Assembly: GCA_000004695.1 (NCBI GenBank)
Contig: CM000154.2
Location: 3,936,001 to 4,000,000 of the forward strand
From: Dictyostelium discoideum
Taxonomy: Eukaryota
Reading direction: 5' to 3'
Length of the DNA: 64,000 nt
Shown here piece after piece: positions 10,402-62,128 of the stretch. Under the pieces are notes generated by a model. It ran no database searches. It was not told where the DNA came from and was given only the letters and a program-made list of their open reading frames with translations. How positions within the stretch are numbered: position 1 is the stretch's first letter; each line of letters starts with the position of its first letter. Made by a program: the position numbers and the translations under genes.

Positions 10402-11228
<827 letters not shown>

Positions 11229-11467
11229 TATTTATGTATACAACGAAAACTGATAACAAACAAAAAAAACAAAACCTAAAAAAAAAAAAAAAAAATTGAA
11301 CCGAGGGAAAATTTTTTGTGTGGAATTTTTCAATTTTTTTTTTTTTTTCAAGATAACGAACAAATTTTCTATACTCGATTTTTTTTTTTATTTTTATTTT
11401 TTTTTTTTAATTAATTTTTTTTAATTTTGGTTTTTTTTTTTTTTTTTTAAATTTCAATGCCAAACTT

Positions 11468-11504
<37 letters not shown>

Positions 11505-11628
11505 CAATAAAAACTATTATTTATTTTCCTTTTTTATTATTATTATTATTATTGTTTTTTTTATTTTTATTTTTAAAATATCATATTTAATATCTCTAAA
11601 ATTTCAGTTTTTTATTTATTTTTTTTTA

Positions 11629-11664
<36 letters not shown>

Positions 11665-11752
11665 TGTTTTAATTGTATTCAAAAATAAATCATAAGTAAT
11701 CGATTGATTGTATTTCCAACACTTTATTATTATTATTATTATTTTTTTTTTT

Positions 11753-13178
11753 TTATGTTGGAGGAGCTTCCCAAAGTGGATTTGTACCTTGATGTGGTGA
11801 TGGTTCATATAATGGATTTACAGATGAGGTTGCCATCTGATTATTTTTCAAAGACATCCAATGATTATAACCAGCTTTAGCACCAAATAAAGCTAAACCA
11901 AGTGCAACGGCACCACCAACAACTACACCAGCAATTGCAGCACCACCAATAACACCTGCTTTTACAGCCACAGATTGACATCTGAATGGAAGTGGATCGA
12001 AATCTTTAAATGTACATTTTTTAGTTGAGTTATCACAAATACCATATTGACAATGAGGATCATCAGGTATACAAACTTTATCATATTGATTACAACCACC
12101 ATAACCTACATCACATTGAGCCACTAAACAAAATGCACTTGATGGACAGACTATTGGTGATTCAATACAACCTTTATTCGAATCACAACTTGCAACCATA
12201 CAAACTGAACTTGATTCACAAGTGATATTACTATGAACGCAGCCAATATCAACTTTACAAAAATCATTTGTACATTTATTTCCATCATCACAATTCTTTT
12301 TAGTGTGAATACATGTGCCATCCAATGAGCAACTATCGTCACTGCATATGTTATTGTCATTACAATTATCGGTGACAATGCATTTACCAGTGACCATATC
12401 ACATTGTGGTTTGTTACAAGCATCTTTAATCTCACAAACCACTGGTAAGTTTGAACATTTTCCAGTGGCTGGATCACAAATATCATTGGTACAGAGATTG
12501 CCATCATCACAATCCACCAATTTAATTTCATTACATGTGGAATTATCATAAGGATTACACTCTGTACGCACACAAAGATTACTTTCATCAGTGGCACAGA
12601 GTGTTTCATTACATGGTTGACAGTCTTTTACCCTATCGAAAAAGCATTCACCAGTGATACTTGAACAACTATCAATTGTACAATAATCCTTATCTGAGCA
12701 TTGTTTCTTTAAATGTGAACAACCATTACCTTCGATACAAGTACTAATTATACATTTATCTGGTATATCACATAACCTATTAACTGTGCAAGTACCATTT
12801 ACACATGGAAGTTCATAACATGTTGGATCAGAGAATGCCTCAGAGTAACATTTTTTTTCAACTTCATAACAACCTCCCAATTCTTCACTACAAACTTTCT
12901 TTTCACAACTATTAGTATATGCACATGGATCAACATTCTCTCTTGGTTCACAAGTTTTTGAAATTGCATTACATTCATAACTTGTACACATTGTATCCAA
13001 TAATGTACAATTTGGTTCTTTCATAATACAATTATATTTCCATTCTTTTGTACCAATATTTGGTGGTGGACATTCCCAACTACCACATGGTGATAAACTT
13101 CCAGTACATTGTGAAACATCACAACATTTTCCAGTACCTTCACAAACTCCACAATAATCTTTCCACTTTTTTCAAATT

Positions 13179-47669: not shown

Positions 47670-50235
47670 ATGATGATTAGTGATACAGAAAATCAACCAT
47701 TATCACCAAATAAAAATTCAAGTGGTAATAGTGGTAGAAATGATTTAATTATTAAACTTGTATTTCCACCATCATCATCTATAAGAAGTAAATTTATGTT
47801 TGTTCAAGAGAATCAAAAAGTTAGTGACATAGTAGATTATGCAACTCAATTAGCAGGTTTAAACCCTGGTTATAGTTTACAATTATCAGCATCACCAACA
47901 ACAGGTAGACCTCAATGGTTAGATGATGATCAATTATTAATAAGTTATTCAATTCCAACTTCTGTATGTTATATTATTATATTTATATACACATATACAT
48001 ATATCATAATAATAATAATAATAATTATTATTATCTCACAATTTATTAACATATATGCTGAATGAATATATAATATATATATATATATAGAGTGAAATTA
48101 AAATTAAAAGAAAACCAGGTATTAAAAGAAGAAATACACTTTCAACTATTAAACCAATTAAAGAGGGTAAAGTTCAAAAATTAACATCAATTACAAAGAT
48201 TTGGACAACTCGTTATCTAAGATTATATTCAATGAGATTAGCTCATTCTTCAAATGAAAATGATTCAAGTGCTGATCATATTCAATTTGCTGATATAACA
48301 AATGTTGATAAAGAAGTTAATAGAAAATATACTTTTGTAATTTATTGTCAAAATAATAGTAATACCACAAATACAACAACAACATCATCATCATCAACAA
48401 CGACGGCAACAGTGGGTAGTGGTAATGCTGGATTATCGCAAAGTCAAACAGTTTCAAGTTTTCAAAATTTAAGTGCAAGTACCAGTGGTACCAATTTATT
48501 TGCAGAGAGTAAAAAAGAAAAAGAATATGTTTTTAGATGTATAAATCAAAGAGAAGCTGAAGATTGGATCACTTCAATTCGTTCAATGTTAAGATCATCA
48601 AGACCTGATCTTTTATTACCACCTTTAACACCATTTTTATCTGTAAATAATAATACAAAGAATAATAATAATAATAATAATAGTAATTTAATATTACCAC
48701 CATCACCTTCACCATCAAATCAATTATCTTTAAATAATAATAATAATAGTAATAGTAATAATAATAATAATATATGGACTTCACCAACATTACCAAGTTC
48801 AATGCCACCACCAACAACGCCAATAATATCATTAAATCAAAGTGTAACACCAACAAATGAAAAGAATAGTAGTAGTGCTACTACTATTGATAGAGAAATA
48901 ACACCATCACAAACACCAACTAAACAAAGATCACTCTCCTTTTCATTTTCAAAAATTGGTGGTAATAAAAGAAAAGAATTACCACCACCATTTATACAAA
49001 ATCAATCATCATCATCAACATCATCATCACCTTCATCAACAAGTTCTACATCATCATCATCAACACCACCACCACCACCTACACAATCTTTATCAGAAAG
49101 AAATAATCAATTGGAGGAAGAGATAAAAAGATTAAATGAAGTATTAAATAGGGATACAAAATCTAAAGTAGAACTTGAAAAGAAGTATCAAAAGATTAAA
49201 GCGAAAATGGCGATTTTAAAGAAACAAAGATCAAGATCACTCTCTACTCCTGCAACACCAGAAGTTCCAAGAAAAGATAAATCTTCTTTTATTCCAACAT
49301 TTTTAATTGGTGGTAGTAGAGTTAAAGATAAAGATAAAGATTTACAACAACAACAACAGCAACAACAACAACAATCACAAAATGCTACAGCAACAACAAC
49401 ATCAAATACACAAGTTTCACATAAACGTCATTCATCAAGTTCTCAATCATTTAATTTAAATAATTTAAATAATGGAAGTTCATATTCAAATAAAGGAATA
49501 ATGATGGATGATGATAATACAGATAATGATATAACCAGTAGTGAAATGTTTACAGGTAGTGTATTTGATGATGCTGATATTTCAGATTTTGAAAAGGATA
49601 AAGAGATCAAAGATTTGAAAGATCAATTGGTTAGAATTAAAGAAAAGATACAATTAGATTTAAATGAAAAAACTAAAGTTGAAACTTCTTTTAAATTATT
49701 GGAAAAAGAATTATTCACCCAAAAGAAATTGGATGAAAAGAGAGAAAGAGAAATACTTGTAAATGAACAAAGACAAGATGATCAATTAGATTCTATGGCT
49801 GAATTAGCTTCACGTCTAAAGAAAACTTTATTCGATTTGAAAGAAAAGTTAGAAAACGAACAACAACAACAAGAAGATGAAGAAGAAGAAGATGAAGAAA
49901 ATGAATATATTGATGTTGAGGATGGTCATGATGATGATACTAATAATAATATTAGTAATATCAATCATGATGATAGTTATCAAAATGAAAATCAATATAA
50001 TATCAATGGTAAACATAATAATAGTAGTAATAATAATAATAATAATAAAGAACATACTATCAATAATGAAAATGAAGAAGACGATGAAGAGTTAGATGTA
50101 GATTATGGTGATATAGGTGATGACATTGAAGATTATGATGATGATAAAAATGAATCTTATATTGAGAGTGGTAATATTACGACTGCATCAATAAAAGAAG
50201 ATATTGATTATCAGGATCTTGAATCAACTATATAA
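47670..50235 (+). CDS. PH-domain protein with an N-terminal ubiquitin-like/Ras-association-like fold and a C-terminal coiled coil. Exon model: join(47670..47963,48091..50235), ~812 aa.
   Basis: PH-domain pattern KEGKVQKLTSITKIWTTRYLRLYS...YTFVIYCQNN...EYVFRCINQREAEDWITSIRSM. GTATGT donor at 47964 and an ATATAG acceptor at 48090, phase 0. Long poly-N/S/T linkers and a heptad-rich tail. Confidence 0.6.
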
Positions 50236-51020
50236 TTATTAAAAAATAATAATAATAATAATAATAAAATTTATTTATTTAATTATTTATTTATTTACTA
50301 TATATTTATTTATTTATCATTTTATTGACTAATTTGTTTTTATTTTTATTAATTTGTTTTTATTAATTTATTTGTTTGCTTGTTTTTTTTTTTTTTTTTT
50401 CTAAATAATATTTAAAGAAGATTAATTAATTCGGCCACATTCTTTAAAAAAACACCAATATAAACGAAGAGGTTGATATAATTGATTATTACATCTTAAA
50501 ATTGAGTGTCGTCTTAAATTCTGTCTTTGGAAAGTTTGGATAATTTTTTAACCTATTTTTTTATAAGGATTATCCATTAAAGGAAATAAACAAAAATTAA
50601 TAGTTTTATTTTGAAATTTCAAGATAAAAATTAGTTTTTCTTCTTTGATTTAAATTTTAAATAATTATAGTGTTGTTATTGTTAATATTATGTTTTTTTT
50701 TTTTAAAAAAAATATCCAATTTTAAAAATATTAATTAGTATTTAAAATTAAAGAAATTAAAGAAATAAATCAAATATTAAAATTGGTTATTTAGATGAAA
50801 AGGTGGAAGGAGACCCTGTTTGGAAACACTGTTTCAGGAGTAAAAGTACCACGTACGGGTATATACTTTTCATGATAGTTTCTTATATTATCTGTTTAAA
50901 TCATTTGAAAGAGTTAATTTTAAAAACTTTTTCTTTTGATTTTTTATATTCTAGAGTTTGTATCATATAAAGTAGACCCTTTTTCTAATCTTCATGTTTC
51001 CTTATCTTTTTAAAATTTAA

Positions 51021-51031
51021 GAGTCGAACCT
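51021..51031 (-). promoter_or_regulatory. External B box (exB), a Pol III B-box consensus GGTTCGACTC, about 30 bp downstream of the tRNA gene.
   Basis: The minus-strand GGTTCGACTC matches the GGTTCGANTCC B box. It cannot be placed in a T-arm stem, so it is not a second tRNA. Dictyostelium tRNA genes commonly carry such an exB element. Confidence 0.4.
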
Positions 51032-51061
51032 GCGATCTTGAAACTCTCGCGAGGGAAAATT

Positions 51062-51157
51062 TGGAGAAGAAGGGTATCGATCCCTTTACCTTATGGAAAT
51101 CTGATTATCGTTGCTGTTTATGCAAACCATACGCTCTACCATATGAGCTACATCCCC
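51062..51157 (-). tRNA. tRNA-Ala (anticodon UGC) with a 23-nt intron at 51098..51120.
   Basis: Manual cloverleaf on the minus strand. Acceptor GGGGATG/CTTCTCC with a G3:U70 wobble, which is the alanine identity pair, and one U6:U67 mismatch. D-arm GCTC-ATATGGTA-GAGC. Anticodon stem TATGG/CCATA with loop TTTGCAT. Intron between positions 37 and 38. T-arm AAGGG-ATCGATA-CCCTT. Discriminator A. Mature length 73 nt. Confidence 0.6.
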
Positions 51158-51457
51158 TTTGATGAAATTTTAGGAATTTTTGATGATTTTATATATTAAA
51201 ATTTCAGATAATTCCCAAAAAAATTATAAAATTCATTTTTTTTTTTTTTTGAAAATAAAAGTTTATCTAAATTTATTATCAATAATCTTGGGAAAAATTA
51301 AAAACCACAAACGATATTATAATGATTTATTATAGATTTAAACACAAAACAAAACAAAATTTTATTTTAAAAAAATAATAACACAAGATGACTCACAAAA
51401 AAAAAAAAAAAATTATTTTGAAAAAAAAAAAAAATAAAAAATTAAATTAGAAACAAA

Positions 51458-52839
51458 ATGACAAAGAGTGTATTTGTGACAGTTGGTACAACCAAGTTTG
51501 ATGATTTAATAGATAAAATTGATTCACCAAAATTATTTAATATATTATTAAAGTATGGGTTTAACAAAATGATTATTCAAATTGGTAATTATAGTGGAAC
51601 AATTGAAAATTCATTACCATTTGATGAAAATAATAATAATAATAATAAAACAAATAGTAAAACAACAACATCAACAACAACAACAGCAAAATTTGAATCT
51701 TTATATTTTGATTATAAACCATCACTTTCTGAATTTATGAAAAATTCAGATTTAATAATTTCTCACGCAGGTAATTAATTTTATTATATATACACAATAT
51801 TTAATAATAATAGTATAATTATACTAATAGTAACTATAATTATTATTATTATTATTTAAAATAATTTTAGGATCAGGATCAATTTTAGAATCTTTAGAAA
51901 ATAACAAACCATGTATATGTGTTGTTAATGATAAATTAATGGATAATCATCAAAAAGAATTAGCAGATAAATTATCAAATCTTTCATATATTTTATCAAC
52001 TAATCCAACTTCATTATATGAAACCATTGAAACTAAATTGGATGAATATTTAAAGAATAGAATTTATTTAGATAAATCTATTCATCAAAAAGCACAACAA
52101 CAATTTGCTACATCATTATCAAATCAATTTAAATTAATAAATAATAATGAAGATGATAATACTAAAACATCATCATCATCATCAACAACAACAACAACAA
52201 CAACAACAAATTCAAAAAAGAAATTTAAAACAATGGTAGTTTTAGGATCAGGTGGTCATACAACTGAAATGTTTTATTTATTAAAAAAAGTTGATAAAAA
52301 TAAATTTAATCCAATCACTTATGTATTAGCTGATAGTGATAAAAGATCTGAAGATAAAATTAAAATTGAAGATACATCATCACCAATCATAAAGAAAATA
52401 CCAAGAAGTAGAAATGTTGGTCAATCATTTTTTAATAGTATTTTTACAACTGTATGTTTTTAATTTTATTATTAATTATTATTATTATTATTATTATTAT
52501 TATCTATTATTAATTATTATAAATTTAAATATATAGTTAATTGCATTATTTTATTCAATGTTATTAGTATTTAAAGAAAAACCAGATTGTCTTTTATGTA
52601 ATGGACCAGGTACATGTGTACCATTAGCAGTTTGTGTTTTATTATTAAGATGGTTACGTATTGGAAAAGGTTCAAAGATTATTTATATTGAAAGTTTAGC
52701 AAGAGTAAATGATTTATCATTATCTGGGAAAATATTACAACATATTTCTGATTGGTTTGTTGTTCAATGGCCTGAATTACTTAGTAAAACTGATTCAAGT
52801 AATGTATCTTGTATAAATTTATTCTTTGAAACATTTTAA
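51458..52839 (+). CDS. Fused ALG13-ALG14 UDP-GlcNAc transferase (both subunits in one polypeptide). Exon model: join(51458..51770,51871..52451,52537..52839), ~398 aa.
   Basis: The N-terminal half is ALG13-like (VFVTVGTTKFDDLI...ISHAG/SGSILESLE). After a poly-T/S linker come the ALG14 hallmarks VVLGSGGHTTEMFYLL, CNGPGTCVPL, IYIESLARVNDLSLSGKIL and FVVQWPEL. GTAATT donor at 51771 and AG at 51870 (phase 1). GTATGT donor at 52452 and TATAG at 52536 (phase 0). No stop codon separates the two halves. Confidence 0.75.
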
Positions 52840-55147: not shown

Positions 55148-56077
55148 ATGGTTTTAAATTTTATAAATAAATCAGAATCAATTTGTAATGCACCAAGTAC
55201 TGGAGCAAATGGTACATCAACATTATTATATATTCCAATAACTCAACCAAATGAAACTCAACCATTTTTAACATTTAATATACCATCGACATTATCAAAT
55301 AGCAATTTTATGATTGGTTCAATCTCCATTGAATCAATTAGTGAAGTTAATTCAAATAATGATATGATTGTAAAGAGAATACCATTTACCAATTGGTTAA
55401 AGATTTCACCATTAACTTCAGTACCATTTAAATATTCAATTAAAACCAATGATTTAAGTTTACTAATTGATGTCAATTGGTCAGTGAATGTAATCAATGC
55501 ACAATTGAATTATACAAATATTCAATTCAGTTTTAATTTCACAAAATATCAATTTCAATCACCAACAAATAAATTGTCTTTGAATTTAGTTCAAAGCTTA
55601 ATGGATTCTCAAGTTTCTACTGGAAAAAGTGCATGTGGTATCTCACAATTGGTTACAAATTCAGTTTATCATCAAGAGGTTAAACTTGGTGATATTACAT
55701 TACTTGGTGAATTAAATACTGATTCAAATATTGATGGTACCCTTGAAAATAAAGTACTCATTGCTACTCAAGTTAATAAATCTACTACAACAACAACTTC
55801 TTCAATTGAAACTTCTCAAAAAATTTCAATCATTATTCCAAATTTCTTAAATTTTGCTCAATTTACAACAAATTATTTCCCAATTAAAGATCCAAGTCCA
55901 ATTACATCAACCTTTGCAAATGGTACAATTTGTGTTTCTGGTCCTTCTTCAAAAACTGGTAGAACTCAACAAGAAGTTGCTGCAATTTGTGTTGGTGTAA
56001 TTGGTTTTTCAATTATTGGTTTAATGGCACTTCACTTTTTCTATTTAAATGGTAGATTTTATAACAAAAGAGATTAA
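55148..56077 (+). CDS. Ser/Thr/Asn-rich type-I membrane glycoprotein of unknown function. The 5' exon is possibly missing.
   Basis: 309-aa ORF with many N-x-S/T sequons and a single C-terminal TM helix, AAICVGVIGFSIIGLMALHFFYL, followed by a short tail. There is no signal peptide after the first Met, so an upstream exon is likely. Confidence 0.45.
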   Translation: MVLNFINKSESICNAPSTGANGTSTLLYIPITQPNETQPFLTFNIPSTLSNSNFMIGSISIESISEVNSNNDMIVKRIPFTNWLKISPLTSVPFKYSIKTNDLSLLIDVNWSVNVINAQLNYTNIQFSFNFTKYQFQSPTNKLSLNLVQSLMDSQVSTGKSACGISQLVTNSVYHQEVKLGDITLLGELNTDSNIDGTLENKVLIATQVNKSTTTTTSSIETSQKISIIIPNFLNFAQFTTNYFPIKDPSPITSTFANGTICVSGPSSKTGRTQQEVAAICVGVIGFSIIGLMALHFFYLNGRFYNKRD

Positions 56078-57061: not shown

Positions 57062-57755
57062 TTATTGAATATTACTAAATATGAAAGATTGATGGGGTGG
57101 TAATTTTAGGAAATTCCATTTTGAAATAAAAGGATTAATCAAGTAATAAAGTTTATCATCACTATTTTTAATATAATCAATGTTGAAATGATTATTACTT
57201 AAATCTACATATTCAGTTAATAAATTTAATTTTGATTCAAATGTTTTAATTGAAATTTTTAAATTTGAATCAATTTCATTATCACTATTTCTTTTTGATA
57301 TTATTTCTTCATTATTATTACCTTCTTCATCATTAATATTTCCATATCCATTATTTTCATTATTATTTCCATTATCATTATTATTATCATTATTATTATT
57401 AAATGATAAATCAATATTGATTTTATTATTATCATGATTATTTAATAAATTATAAAGTAAAGTGAAAATAGCGATTATTGAAAGATTACAATTTCTAAAT
57501 GAAACTTTTTTTAAAGATTTACAAAGTGGTAAATGTTTAATGAGTATTTTTGAACCTTTAATACCAATATTATTATTTTGTAATTGTAATACCAATAATC
57601 TATTTGAATTTTCAATTAATTTACCAACACTTGTGATATCATCCATTGTTGATAATTCCATATCATCAATAACCAATTTACTAATTTTATTAAATTCACT
57701 ATTATCTAAAATTGATAATGATACTGGTGTCATTGCTGATGTTATTACATTCATC

Positions 57756-57793
<38 letters not shown>

Positions 57794-59319
57794 GCTTGTT
57801 GTTGTTGTTGTTGTTGTTGATTTAATTGAATTTGAACCAATATCTAAAGTTGGAATTAAACTACATTTTTTAAATAAATTAGTTAATGTTTGATTTGATA
57901 ATTTATCTAAACCACAAGATCTAATTTCAAATTCATGTAAATTTGAAAGTATATTACAAGTTGATGATGATAATAATTGAAAACCACTATCACCAATTTC
58001 TTCATTACCAGATAATTTTAATACTATTAAATTTGTTGAAGAAGAAGATAATAATAATAATGATTCAAAAATGATTTTAAATGATTGAAAAGTTAAATTA
58101 CAATAACTTAAATTTAAAGTTGTTAATGGTGAAAAAGTTAACCAATTTAAAAAGATATTTGAATCTAATTTTGAAAATCTATTAAATGAAAGATTTACAT
58201 TTTTAATATACTTTGGTTGATAATTTAATGATTTAATTGCCAATGTTAGCTTGCTAATAGTTTCTCTATTCAATGCACAATTAATTAAAGATAATTCTTC
58301 AACATTATATAACGATAGAAATATTGAAATCATTTGATCAATTGATTGAATTGATAATCTATTATTAGTGAATGAAATCGATTTAATTGTAGCTCTATTT
58401 CTAAATGATTCCAAATGAAAAGATAATGTAATTTCCAATAATGTTGATTCTTTAAAAATTTGATTATTGGTAGTGGTAGCAGTAGTATCATTTACTAAAT
58501 AATCACAACTATAACCATTAATTAATAATGAATCATCAGAGATTGAAATTGAATCGATTAGATCAGAATCTTCAAGTTGGTCATGTGAATCATCAATGAA
58601 TGAACATTTCAATTGTTTAATATTTTTCTTTTCAATTAAATCTATTAATTTATATTTCAATGGTACTTCTTTTTCATTACCAACATAGAATTTATCAACT
58701 TGAATAATTTTTTCAAATCTATTATATCCTAATAATTTAATTCTATCATTACATCTTTCTCTTAACCAATTTAAATCATATTCATTTGATTCTAATCCAA
58801 TAATTGGTATAAATAATATAATATCTAAAAATATTTTAACTTTAATAAATTTATATTTATTTAAAATTGTAGTTATTGTTATTGCTGTTGTTGTCGTTGT
58901 ATTTGATTTTTTAATTGGTGATATTAAATTATTATTATCATTGTTGTTATTGATGGTATTGTTGGTATCATCAAATACCTTATTTAAATTCTTTTTCCAA
59001 TCTTTATTTTTTTTAATTGGTACATCATTTGGAACAATAAAGTCATTAGTCCAACATGGTAATAATTCGCCATTACTATCATAATGACTTGGTGAATGAT
59101 ATTCAATTTCATTTTGATCGAAATCATCTTCAATTGAATAATTATTAGTACTACTACTATTATTATTATTTGGTGATTTCGTAGGTGATAATGGTGATGG
59201 TGATGATGTATTAAATCTTCTTTTAGTTGGTGTTGAAAGTTTTGAAGGTGTTGAAATTCTACTATTACTATTACCATTGATATTACTACTACTACTACTA
59301 TTATTATTTTTTAAAATCG

Positions 59320-59351
<32 letters not shown>

Positions 59352-62128
59352 CTATCAACAATAATTGGATCTTTAATACTTCCAGTATTTTCATAACTTT
59401 TATATTTTCTTTTTTGTTCTTCTTCTTGTTGTTCCTTTTGTAATTGTTCTAATAATGGACCTGATGAAGGATAAATTATGAAATCATCTTTATAGGAAGG
59501 TAAATCAACTGGTTTACCTGTGATTTTTGAATATTCTAAACCATCAGCACCTACTATATAACTTGAACCAACTTGAAAATGTGATCTTGTCTTTTTAGAT
59601 GATGATGATGATGATAATAATCCTCCTTCTTCAAAATTAAAATTCATTTCCCTTTTATTATTTTCATTCCTTTGAATTTGTAATAAATATTCTGTATCTA
59701 GTATTTCATTTTCAAGTTTCTCTCTTTCTTCTTTTTTATTCCTTAATTCTTCTAATATTTCTTTTCTACTTTTACCATTACCATTACTATTACTATTACC
59801 ATTACTATTACCATTACTCTTACCATTACTGTTACCATTACTATTACCATTACCATTACCATTACTATTACCATTATCAATATTATTTTTATTATTTTCT
59901 AGTATTATTGGAGATGATTTATCAATTGACATTGGTGAATTATTACCAGTTTTTAAATAATCAGCACTATTATTTAGATTATCTTCAAATGATAAATTCT
60001 CAAAAGATAAATCCTTAGTTCCATCTTTCTTTTTTGGTGAAATTTTAAATTTTGAAGATTCTGTATTATCTCTATCATCACCACCATCATCAATATAGTT
60101 AATATAATCAGTATCACAATCATAAGAGTTTTTAATATTCTTTTGAAATTGTTTTGATAGAGAGTATTTTTGTGATTGTGATAATGATAATGATTGTGAT
60201 GATGATGATAATGATAATGATAATGATGGTGATGATGATTGATAATTTTCTTGTTCTTGTTTTAATTTTTTAATTCTTTCATTTACTTTTGATTCTTTTA
60301 TTAAAGTTTCTTTATAAAATTTTGAAAAATCATCAAATTCTAAATAAACTAATAATAAATTTGAAATTGCCATTAATTTCCTTTCAAAAATTGAAATTAA
60401 TATTTGATATTCTTCTTCTTGATCTTCTCCTCCCTCTTTTTCTTTTTCAAATTGATCATTCTCTAAAATTTTAATTGCATCATTTAATAAACTAATTCTT
60501 TTTTCCTTTCTACTATCACCAAATGGTTCTAACCTTTTCAATGCATTTGAATAATTTATTTTTGCTAATGCTATTATTTGTATTATTTGTTGTTGTTGTT
60601 GTTGTTGTAATTGTAGATTATTATTATTATTATTACTGTTTTCATTTATTTTATTACTAAATTCTATTATAGATCTACTTAAACCAATTGAGATATTAAA
60701 ATATTTTTTTATTTTTAAACAATCTAAATAATTTGAATGATCTTCTAAAACTAAAAATAATTTATCATATTTTTTTAAATAAATTAATGATTTTTCATAT
60801 TCTACCCAATATTTTAATTTCTTTTCAATGAAATAAAAATATCTATTTTCATAATCATCTGGTTTCTCTTTATCTAATTGATCTAAAATCGTTTCATATA
60901 TTAAAATTAAATTTTCATGATATAGAGTTATATCTCTATTATTATTATTATTATTATTATTATCATCTTCATTTTTATTTTTATCTTTATTATTATTATT
61001 TGAATTTAAAATTGAATTTAATAATTTTTCAGATTCAATTCTATTTTTATTAATTTTAATTGAATTTTTTAAACGATTCATTTGAAAATCTAAATATGAT
61101 CTCTTTATTAAATGTGGACACTTTTCAGATTCTTTTTCAAGTTGTTTAATTGTTTCTTTAAATTCTTTATTTCTTTCATCACTATAATAGCATTCAAGTA
61201 ATAATTGATAACAATCAAATTTATCTTTATCCATTTTAGTTGTTGATGATGATCTATTAATTCTTTCATTTAAATAATAACTTGCTCCAACTGCATCATG
61301 ACATTTTAAACATAATAATCCTAAATTATAATATTGATTTCCTTCCATATCTTTTTTACATTTTTCTTCAACTAATAAAAAAAAAATAATAATAATAATA
61401 ATCATATATATATATTAATAATTAATTTTTTAATTTTTAAAATTATAATGTATAATATTATTCTTACTCTTTTTATAAAATGATAAAGCTTTTTTATATT
61501 GTTCTAAATGAATACTACAATAAATTTCATTTGATAAAAGTTCAATATTCTTTATAAAATCTTTAATGTTTTCAGATGATTGATTATCAATTTCTAAAAG
61601 TTCAACTGAATATTGATATGCTAAAACTTTTAAATACTTTATTGCTTTCCTTATTATTGTATATGGATTATTGTTTTTATTATAAATTTTATTTTTATTA
61701 TTTGTTGAAGAATCTTCATTATCTAATTTATTTAATTTATTACAATAAAATACACCAATGTCATGAAAACAATCAAATGATATTTTATAAAATTTCTTTG
61801 TTGGTGGTTGAAATGTTTTAAGTTTCGATTGAAAATGTTCAATCCTTATGATTATATCATTTTCATTTAATATGTCAATACCAAATAGCATATTGGTATT
61901 AAATACACCAATTAAAATACCTAAAATATCATATAATGTACTCTCTTTGATATCATTATCATTATTATTATTGTTTTTATTATTATAGTCACTACCAACA
62001 CTATTATATATTTTATTTATAATTTCCCATCCTTTTCTATATTCATCTCTAGTTTTCTTTTTTTTTTCAAATCCACCTTTTTCTGATAATTTTGCTGATT
62101 TTAATATATTTGATAATTGTACTTCCAT
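57062..62128 (-). CDS. Large TPR-like + leucine-rich-repeat (RNI-type LRR) protein. Proposed model: join(57062..61371,61468..62128), minus strand, ~1656 aa.
   Basis: ORFs 61430..62128 and 57062..61405 are separated by 24 nt. They join in frame through a GTAAGA donor at 61467 and a TATTAG acceptor at 61372, giving ...ALSFYKK|IEEKCKKDMEGNQYYNLG.... The N-terminus has TPR-like helices, the middle is Asn/Ser-rich, and the C-terminal ~550 aa hold LRRs of the L..L.LS.N.I type. Confidence 0.55.

Follow-up and report, generated by a model that had tools for sequence, protein, structure and literature searches.

A probable nuclear, intron-containing gene for tRNA-Ala(UGC) in Dictyostelium discoideum AX4 and its conserved downstream B box

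In a 64-kb stretch of Dictyostelium discoideum AX4 DNA (hereafter the window; 21.5% G+C), a short minus-strand segment can be folded into an alanine tRNA whose anticodon loop is interrupted by 23 nt, and a second B-box-like sequence lies beyond its 3′ end. This locus raises the questions of whether the segment is a working tRNA-Ala(UGC) gene with a removable intron or a disabled copy, whether the downstream box is an element of the gene or a chance match, and why an intron is kept in a tRNA of this isotype.

Both strands of 50800–51400 were read, and the feature is on the minus strand. There, the sequence from 51157 to 51062 matches the Rfam tRNA family RF00005 with a score of 49.1 bits, above the gathering threshold of 29 (E = 1.8e-7). 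The match is untruncated, covering model positions 1–71 of 71 and leaving 25 nt of the anticodon loop as an insertion, and RF00005 is the sole Rfam family above threshold within the 64-kb window. ARAGORN with its intron option (-i) reported tRNA-Ala(tgc) at c[51062,51157], with 73 bases and a 23-nt intron. The two programs thus agree on what a sequence-only reading had proposed, namely an Ala(UGC) tRNA of 73 nt once a 23-nt intron is removed, and place it on the minus strand. In its default mode, ARAGORN found 0 tRNA genes in the window; because the program ignores introns unless -i is set, as its own help text states, and because -i recovers the gene, this miss is explained by the absent option. 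Intron-blind tRNA finders miss this gene and other intron-containing eukaryotic tRNA genes.

The features of the locus are collected in Table 1. The anticodon is of the alanine type (NGC), and the acceptor stem carries the G3:U70 wobble pair, the major identity element for alanyl-tRNA synthetase, together with the discriminator A73. The G3:U70 pair had been claimed from the sequence, and both of its bases were located; the T-loop ATCGATA with A54, also claimed, was read directly from the sequence. The description of the fold as canonical stood as far as the full covariance-model match is concerned, though the acceptor stem contains a U6•U67 mismatch in the Rfam alignment, which is kept in the orthologues described below. 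At 96 bp, the gene is at or just above the top of the 69–95 bp range of the 407 nuclear D. discoideum tRNA genes, including Ala(TGC), catalogued by tRNAscan-SE (PMC13063481). Weak Rfam matches to snoRNA and miRNA families near the gene (E = 0.9–10) fell far under their gathering scores and were rejected as chance, and a scan for bacterial-type promoters and terminators, irrelevant to a Pol III gene, gave the same result as shuffled sequences.

Table 1. Positions in the window of the tRNA-Ala(UGC) gene and its downstream elements
Feature	Position	Strand	Basis or remark
Whole tRNA-Ala(UGC) gene, positions 1–73 plus 23-nt intron, 96 bp	51062..51157	-	RF00005, 49.1 bits; ARAGORN -i
Exon 1, tRNA positions 1–37	51121..51157	-	Sequence; 37/37 identical in three Dictyostelium genomes
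A-box region TAGCTCATATGG	51150-51139	-	Within exon 1
Anticodon TGC	51124-51122	-	Exon 1; sequence and ARAGORN -i
Intron TAAACAGCAACGATAATCAGATT, 23 nt, at 37/38	51098..51120	-	ARAGORN -i; equivalent ARAGORN register 51097-51119
Exon 2, tRNA positions 38–73	51062..51097	-	RF00005, ARAGORN -i; 36/36 identical in three genomes
T arm AAGGG-ATCGATA-CCCTT (A54, A60)	In exon 2	-	Sequence
G3:U70	G 51155 / U 51065	-	Sequence
Discriminator A73	51062	-	Sequence
Internal B box, positions 52–62, GGATCGATACC (A54, A60)	51073..51083	-	Sequence
TTTT run, +3 to +6 after A73; presumed RNA polymerase III terminator	51056..51059	-	Sequence; function inferred
Conserved downstream block GATCGCA-GGTTCGACTC	51021..51037	-	Sequence; three-genome conservation
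Downstream box GGTTCGACTC	51030-51021	-	31 nt between box and A73
External B box core GTTCGACTC	51029-51021	-	Exact GTTCRAnYC; +33 to +41 after A73

The conservation of the locus was examined in three fairly close Dictyostelium genomes, those of AX4, GCA_054859385.1 and D. firmibasis, by retrieving contigs that encode orthologues of the neighbouring PH-domain protein and running intron-aware ARAGORN and Rfam on them. A syntenic tRNA-Ala(UGC) was present in GCA_054859385.1 with a 23-nt intron and in D. firmibasis with a 22-nt intron, scoring 49.1 and 49.2 bits, respectively, against RF00005. Across the three genomes, 73/73 exon positions and 21/23 intron positions are identical, compared to a three-way identity of 34% in the 5′ flank, 45% in the spacer after the terminator and 15% in the 3′ flank beyond the downstream box, which itself has 8/10 identical positions and keeps its core as GTTCGAYTC. 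The TTTT run just after A73 is kept in 3/3 genomes at the same position or within one position of it. Exons that are 100% identical amid flanks at 15–45% three-way identity point to purifying selection, and the overall pattern is that which purifying selection on a working gene plus a DNA-level downstream element would give. This argues against the locus being a tRNA pseudogene or tRNA-derived repeat in which the 23-nt stretch would be an unspliced, inactivating insertion in the anticodon loop. At the orthologous locus of D. purpureum, which is rearranged with broken synteny, neither ARAGORN nor Rfam detected a tRNA, and a protein search for distant dictyostelids with the neighbouring Alg14-domain ORF returned no dictyostelid proteins; the comparison thus covers one locus in three genomes.

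Two further observations were made in these alignments. The assembly GCA_054859385.1 (JBTAPF010000012.1, 8001–10659) is labelled Dictyostelium discoideum; yet the protein orthologous to DDB_G0290337 that it encodes shares only 85% identity with that of AX4, and the intergenic sequence surrounding the tRNA shares 36–68% with AX4, a greater divergence than would be expected within a species. The assembly may come from a species that is cryptic or wrongly labelled; alternatively, fast evolution of the gene could account for the difference. In addition, 3/3 genomes share a TCAAAAA motif upstream of the tRNA (window 51177–51183, minus strand, approximately −26 to −20), and CAAA immediately precedes position +1 in 2/3 genomes. 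The TCAAAAA motif may result from the way in which AT-rich DNA aligns, its distance from the gene being different in D. firmibasis, or it could be the 5′-flanking consensus box named in the title of a 1991 paper by Hofmann et al.

To what extent the individual features of the gene are unusual was judged against environmental tRNA-Ala genes. A scan of metagenome contigs with the pattern GTAGCTCANNTGGTAGAGCG-N(20-50)-GGGATCGATACCC, which admits introns of up to approximately 26 nt, gave at least 129 matches, corresponding to 42 unique sequences, on at least 120 contigs. Although the pattern permits an intron, 0/129 of the tRNA-Ala matches listed contained one, and 41/42 unique sequences among them are 73 nt long and hence intronless. 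The unique sequences among the matches listed carry G3:U70 in 41/42 cases, A73 in 40/42 and an alanine anticodon in 40/42 (31 AGC, 5 CGC and 4 TGC), and 12/42 have the U6•U67 mismatch. A54 on the listed contigs is nearly confined to Ala genes and to a portion of the Met genes, presumably initiator ones, and of the Thr genes; the remaining isotypes have T54. Eukaryotic cytosolic tRNA-Ala genes of the common 'GGGAUCGAUACCC' type share with the Dictyostelium gene G3:U70, A73, a T arm with A54 and A60 and, occasionally, U6•U67, as well as the 5′ part GGGGAUGUAGCUCA.AUGGUAGAGCG, and one environmental tRNA-Ala(UGC) is identical to the Dictyostelium gene at 61/73 positions. Unlike the environmental genes of this type, which among the matches listed are intronless and all but one 73 nt long, the Dictyostelium gene has a 23-nt intron. 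Because the A54/A60 T-loop and U6•U67 recur in the environmental intronless tRNA-Ala genes listed, both are normal for eukaryotic tRNA-Ala, the intron alone being uncommon.

Of the points that would speak for a pseudogene, the U6•U67 mismatch is therefore offset by its recurrence among the environmental genes and the lack of a default ARAGORN call by the missing intron option; the third point is the lack of introns in the similar tRNA-Ala genes listed. Other features of the listed environmental contigs were A54 in 9/42 tRNA-Thr calls matching the T-loop pattern, introns in 18/18 tRNA-Tyr(GTA) genes, and tandem or inverted tRNA-Ala arrays on several contigs, one with four copies. A stricter search of metagenome contigs, in which homologues had to bear an intron as well as the anticodon stem of the Dictyostelium gene, gave 0 matches.

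The claim that an intron in tRNA-Ala is uncommon in eukaryotes is thus borne out by the matches listed and also by the literature, in which the introns of three tRNA-Ala(UGC) genes of Lachancea thermotolerans are read as a lineage-specific gain (Yoshihisa, 2014, review, PMC4090602). The Ala intron is uncommon yet not unprecedented. The Lachancea and Dictyostelium genes have in common the isodecoder and the presence of a lineage-restricted intron in a eukaryote; they belong to unrelated lineages, fungus and amoebozoan, and the two introns are presumed to have been gained independently. In the literature searched, no paper explicitly names an intron-containing Ala(UGC) gene of D. discoideum, a text search with the T-arm sequence returned nothing relevant, and the portion of the supplement of a Clp1 paper surrounding its intron-count table holds no Dictyostelium entry.

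The position and predicted structure of the intron bear directly on whether it can be spliced. ARAGORN prints the intron at 38/39 instead of 37/38. However, T stands on both sides of the intron junction (TGCA/T...GATT/T, slashes marking the junctions), and the 37/38 and 38/39 registers give an identical mature sequence; because the repeated T makes the registers equivalent, the ARAGORN output is not a discordant call, and the placement between positions 37 and 38 in the sequence-only reading holds. The predicted spliced junction is UUUGCAU-CCAUAAGG, that is, ...GGUUUGCAU/CCAUAAGG.... When the cloverleaf stems were enforced, folding gave a 4-bp helix between U33–C36 and intron bases G7–A10 in 3/3 species, with the 5′ splice site located in a hairpin loop, and by inspection a conserved A at intron position −3, counted from the 3′ splice site, could pair with U32. 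An anticodon–intron pair near the 3′ splice site is the arrangement of eukaryotic endonuclease substrates. By sequence, the intron has the characters of a canonical one, beginning one nucleotide 3′ of the anticodon and pairing with the anticodon loop in the constrained fold. Canonical introns cut by TSEN, such as those of yeast pre-tRNA-Phe and pre-tRNA-Tyr, likewise lie at 37/38, form an anticodon–intron helix and carry, 3 nt ahead of the 3′ splice site, a base able to pair with position 32, and the length of 23 nt is inside their usual 15–30 nt; the present gene differs from the usual intron-bearing tRNA families in its isotype, Ala, and TSEN cleavage is here putative. Orthologues of all four subunits, TSEN2/15/34/54, are reported in Dictyostelium (PMC10485636). 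LOTTE-seq runs of D. discoideum exist (SRR11776729–SRR11776734).

Without constraints, the minimum free energy (MFE) fold of the precursor was no better than that of shuffled sequences (z = −0.48), and the cloverleaf was not the MFE structure of either the precursor or the mature sequence. A non-cloverleaf MFE is common among AU-rich tRNAs and is uninformative here, the covariance model being the relevant test. An inactivating insertion would hardly be expected exactly at the canonical 37/38 position, paired with the anticodon and conserved at 21/23 positions, and considering this together with the identity of the exons, we regard a pseudogene or tRNA-derived repeat as exceedingly improbable.

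A working gene with a removable intron leaves the question of why the intron sequence itself is conserved. The intron could be kept through a role of its own, either by guiding a pre-tRNA modification that depends on the intron or by acting, once freed, as a small RNA, instead of being a neutral passenger. Its 21/23 identity over three genomes contrasts with 34–45% in the adjoining non-coding DNA and with the generally poor sequence conservation of tRNA introns noted in reviews (PMC10485636), and precedents are reported in the intron-dependent m1A58 of tRNA-Tyr (PMC12168002) and in regulation by freed yeast tRNA introns (PMC13079951). However, anticodon pairing and splice-site context account for part of the conservation, and the comparison concerns three related genomes at one locus; a role of this kind is thus unlikely. 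The more specific proposal that the tRNA-Ala(UGC) intron of the D. discoideum group may be under sequence-level selection through a function beyond its removal, as a modification guide or a stable freed small RNA, is slightly less likely again.

External B boxes of D. discoideum tRNA genes were reportedly described by Hofmann et al. in 1991 and by Siol et al. in 2006 and 2011. The Dictyostelium B-box consensus is GTCnnnnGTTCRAnYC, with the core GTTCRAnYC, and 66% of D. discoideum tRNA genes are followed, after approximately 41 bp, by an external B box, isolated B boxes being sufficient as targets of TRE5-A (PMC3159450). A review places the external B box at approximately 80% of the genes and states that TRE3 can integrate relative to the internal or the external box (PMC5911963). 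In the gene studied here, the internal core GATCGATAC misses GTTCRAnYC at two positions, 54 and 60, whereas the downstream core matches it exactly, in the orientation of the gene and past the TTTT terminator. The downstream box is thus the better B-box match, as had been noted, and its distance, given as about 30 bp past the 3′ end, agrees with the interval counted (Table 1). The possible T-stem pairs in the sequences flanking it number, by inspection, 3/5, 2/5 and 4/5 in the three species; the flanks keep no T-stem, in line with the earlier statement that the box cannot form a T-arm.

The bare motif carries little information, GTTCRANYC occurring 5 times in the 64-kb window against 3.7 expected, without enrichment, and the downstream box could on this count be a chance match. 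Alternatively, it could be the decaying remnant of an old tRNA T-arm that is now functionless; the block resembles a tRNA variable loop followed by the 5′ half of a T-arm, and the D. firmibasis sequence GTCGCGTGTTCGATTC fits the internal-type consensus GTCnnnnGTTCRAnYC. However, the probability of a box on the matching strand within approximately 40 bp of the 3′ end of the gene is about 0.1% by chance, as estimated from the shuffle rate, and a 17-nt block including the box (GATCGCAGGTTCGACTC in AX4, GGTCGCGTGTTCGATTC in D. firmibasis) is kept with GTTCGAYTC in the three genomes while the spacer and the 3′ flank diverge. Such boxes are, moreover, documented at 66–80% of D. discoideum tRNA genes and used as retrotransposon targets (PMC3159450, PMC5911963). 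A chance match or a functionless remnant is thus very improbable, if somewhat less so than a pseudogene, and the downstream box is real by its position, orientation and conservation in the orthologues, not by its bare motif.

The identification of the downstream box as the exB element of Dictyostelium is thus upheld by its exact core, its reported position and the retention of GTTCGAYTC in two other genomes while the spacer diverges. Compared to the external B boxes of other D. discoideum tRNA genes, it has the same core, orientation and place after the terminator, 33–41 bp past the 3′ end, and no difference was found. Because Pol III would stop at TTTT before reaching it, the external box would act as a DNA element and not as part of an RNA. 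TFIIIC probably binds it, as judged from published work on other genes. A compensation of the weak internal B box by the external one was considered and set aside, since such boxes accompany most D. discoideum tRNA genes of any isotype.

The genomic neighbourhood was examined by Pfam and by comparison between genomes. The adjacent ORF at 48232–50235 matches DDB_G0290337 of D. discoideum AX4 with 100% identity. The tRNA separates this PH-domain gene from a gene in divergent orientation that has Glyco_tran_28_C (Alg13-like) and Alg14 domains, and it is approximately 300 bp upstream of the latter in 3/3 genomes; a Sec7/BIG-like gene is situated upstream, and a Got1 gene more distantly. Pfam revealed no retroelement domain in any ORF nearby. 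The distances from the tRNA to the flanking genes in AX4 and in the sister genome are 826 and 763 bp, respectively, on the 3′ side and 300 and 285 bp on the 5′ side. This near-equal spacing indicates that no tRNA-targeting retroelement, be it TRE3, TRE5, DGLT-A or Skipper, has settled at the gene.

Several observations on these neighbours are recorded here in their own right. In D. firmibasis, an additional gene of 746 aa was called on the minus strand between the PH-domain gene and the tRNA (positions 10441–12911 of the fetched contig), with no recorded Pfam match; it is absent from AX4 and GCA_054859385.1. Alg13 and Alg14 are separate proteins in yeast and animals. At 51458–52463 (+) in the window, the Alg13-like Glyco_tran_28_C and Alg14 domains are combined within a single gene that a short intron interrupts; this gene is a fusion of the two subunits, and both Pfam families are also present in its D. 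firmibasis orthologue. The ORFs at 57062–61405 (−; 1447 aa) and 55148–56077 (+; 309 aa) had no Pfam match at E ≤ 0.001.

Considering all of these results, we conclude that 51062–51157 is very probably a working nuclear gene for tRNA-Ala(UGC) in D. discoideum AX4, which RNA polymerase III would transcribe from the minus strand. In the pathway that we propose, TFIIIC would bind the A and B boxes inside the gene, probably together with the external B box approximately 33–41 bp past it, and would position TFIIIB upstream; Pol III would stop at TTTT just after A73. The resulting pre-tRNA would bear the 23-nt intron at 37/38, with four intron bases paired with U33–C36, and the tRNA splicing endonuclease would excise the intron before the exons are ligated. 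CCA would then be added, and alanyl-tRNA synthetase would recognise G3:U70. Transcription, splicing and charging are predicted here from the sequence.

The gene, its intron and its external box are all of known kinds, and the gene is in the reference genome; the finding has little importance beyond correct annotation. The locus nevertheless offers a clean, retroelement-free case in which a weak internal B box of the Ala type is followed by a perfect external B box kept between species. If the intron does have a function beyond its removal, a functional tRNA intron would have arisen by lineage-specific gain in an isotype nearly always devoid of introns, and its unusually good conservation is a possible entry point to the question of why sporadically gained tRNA introns persist.
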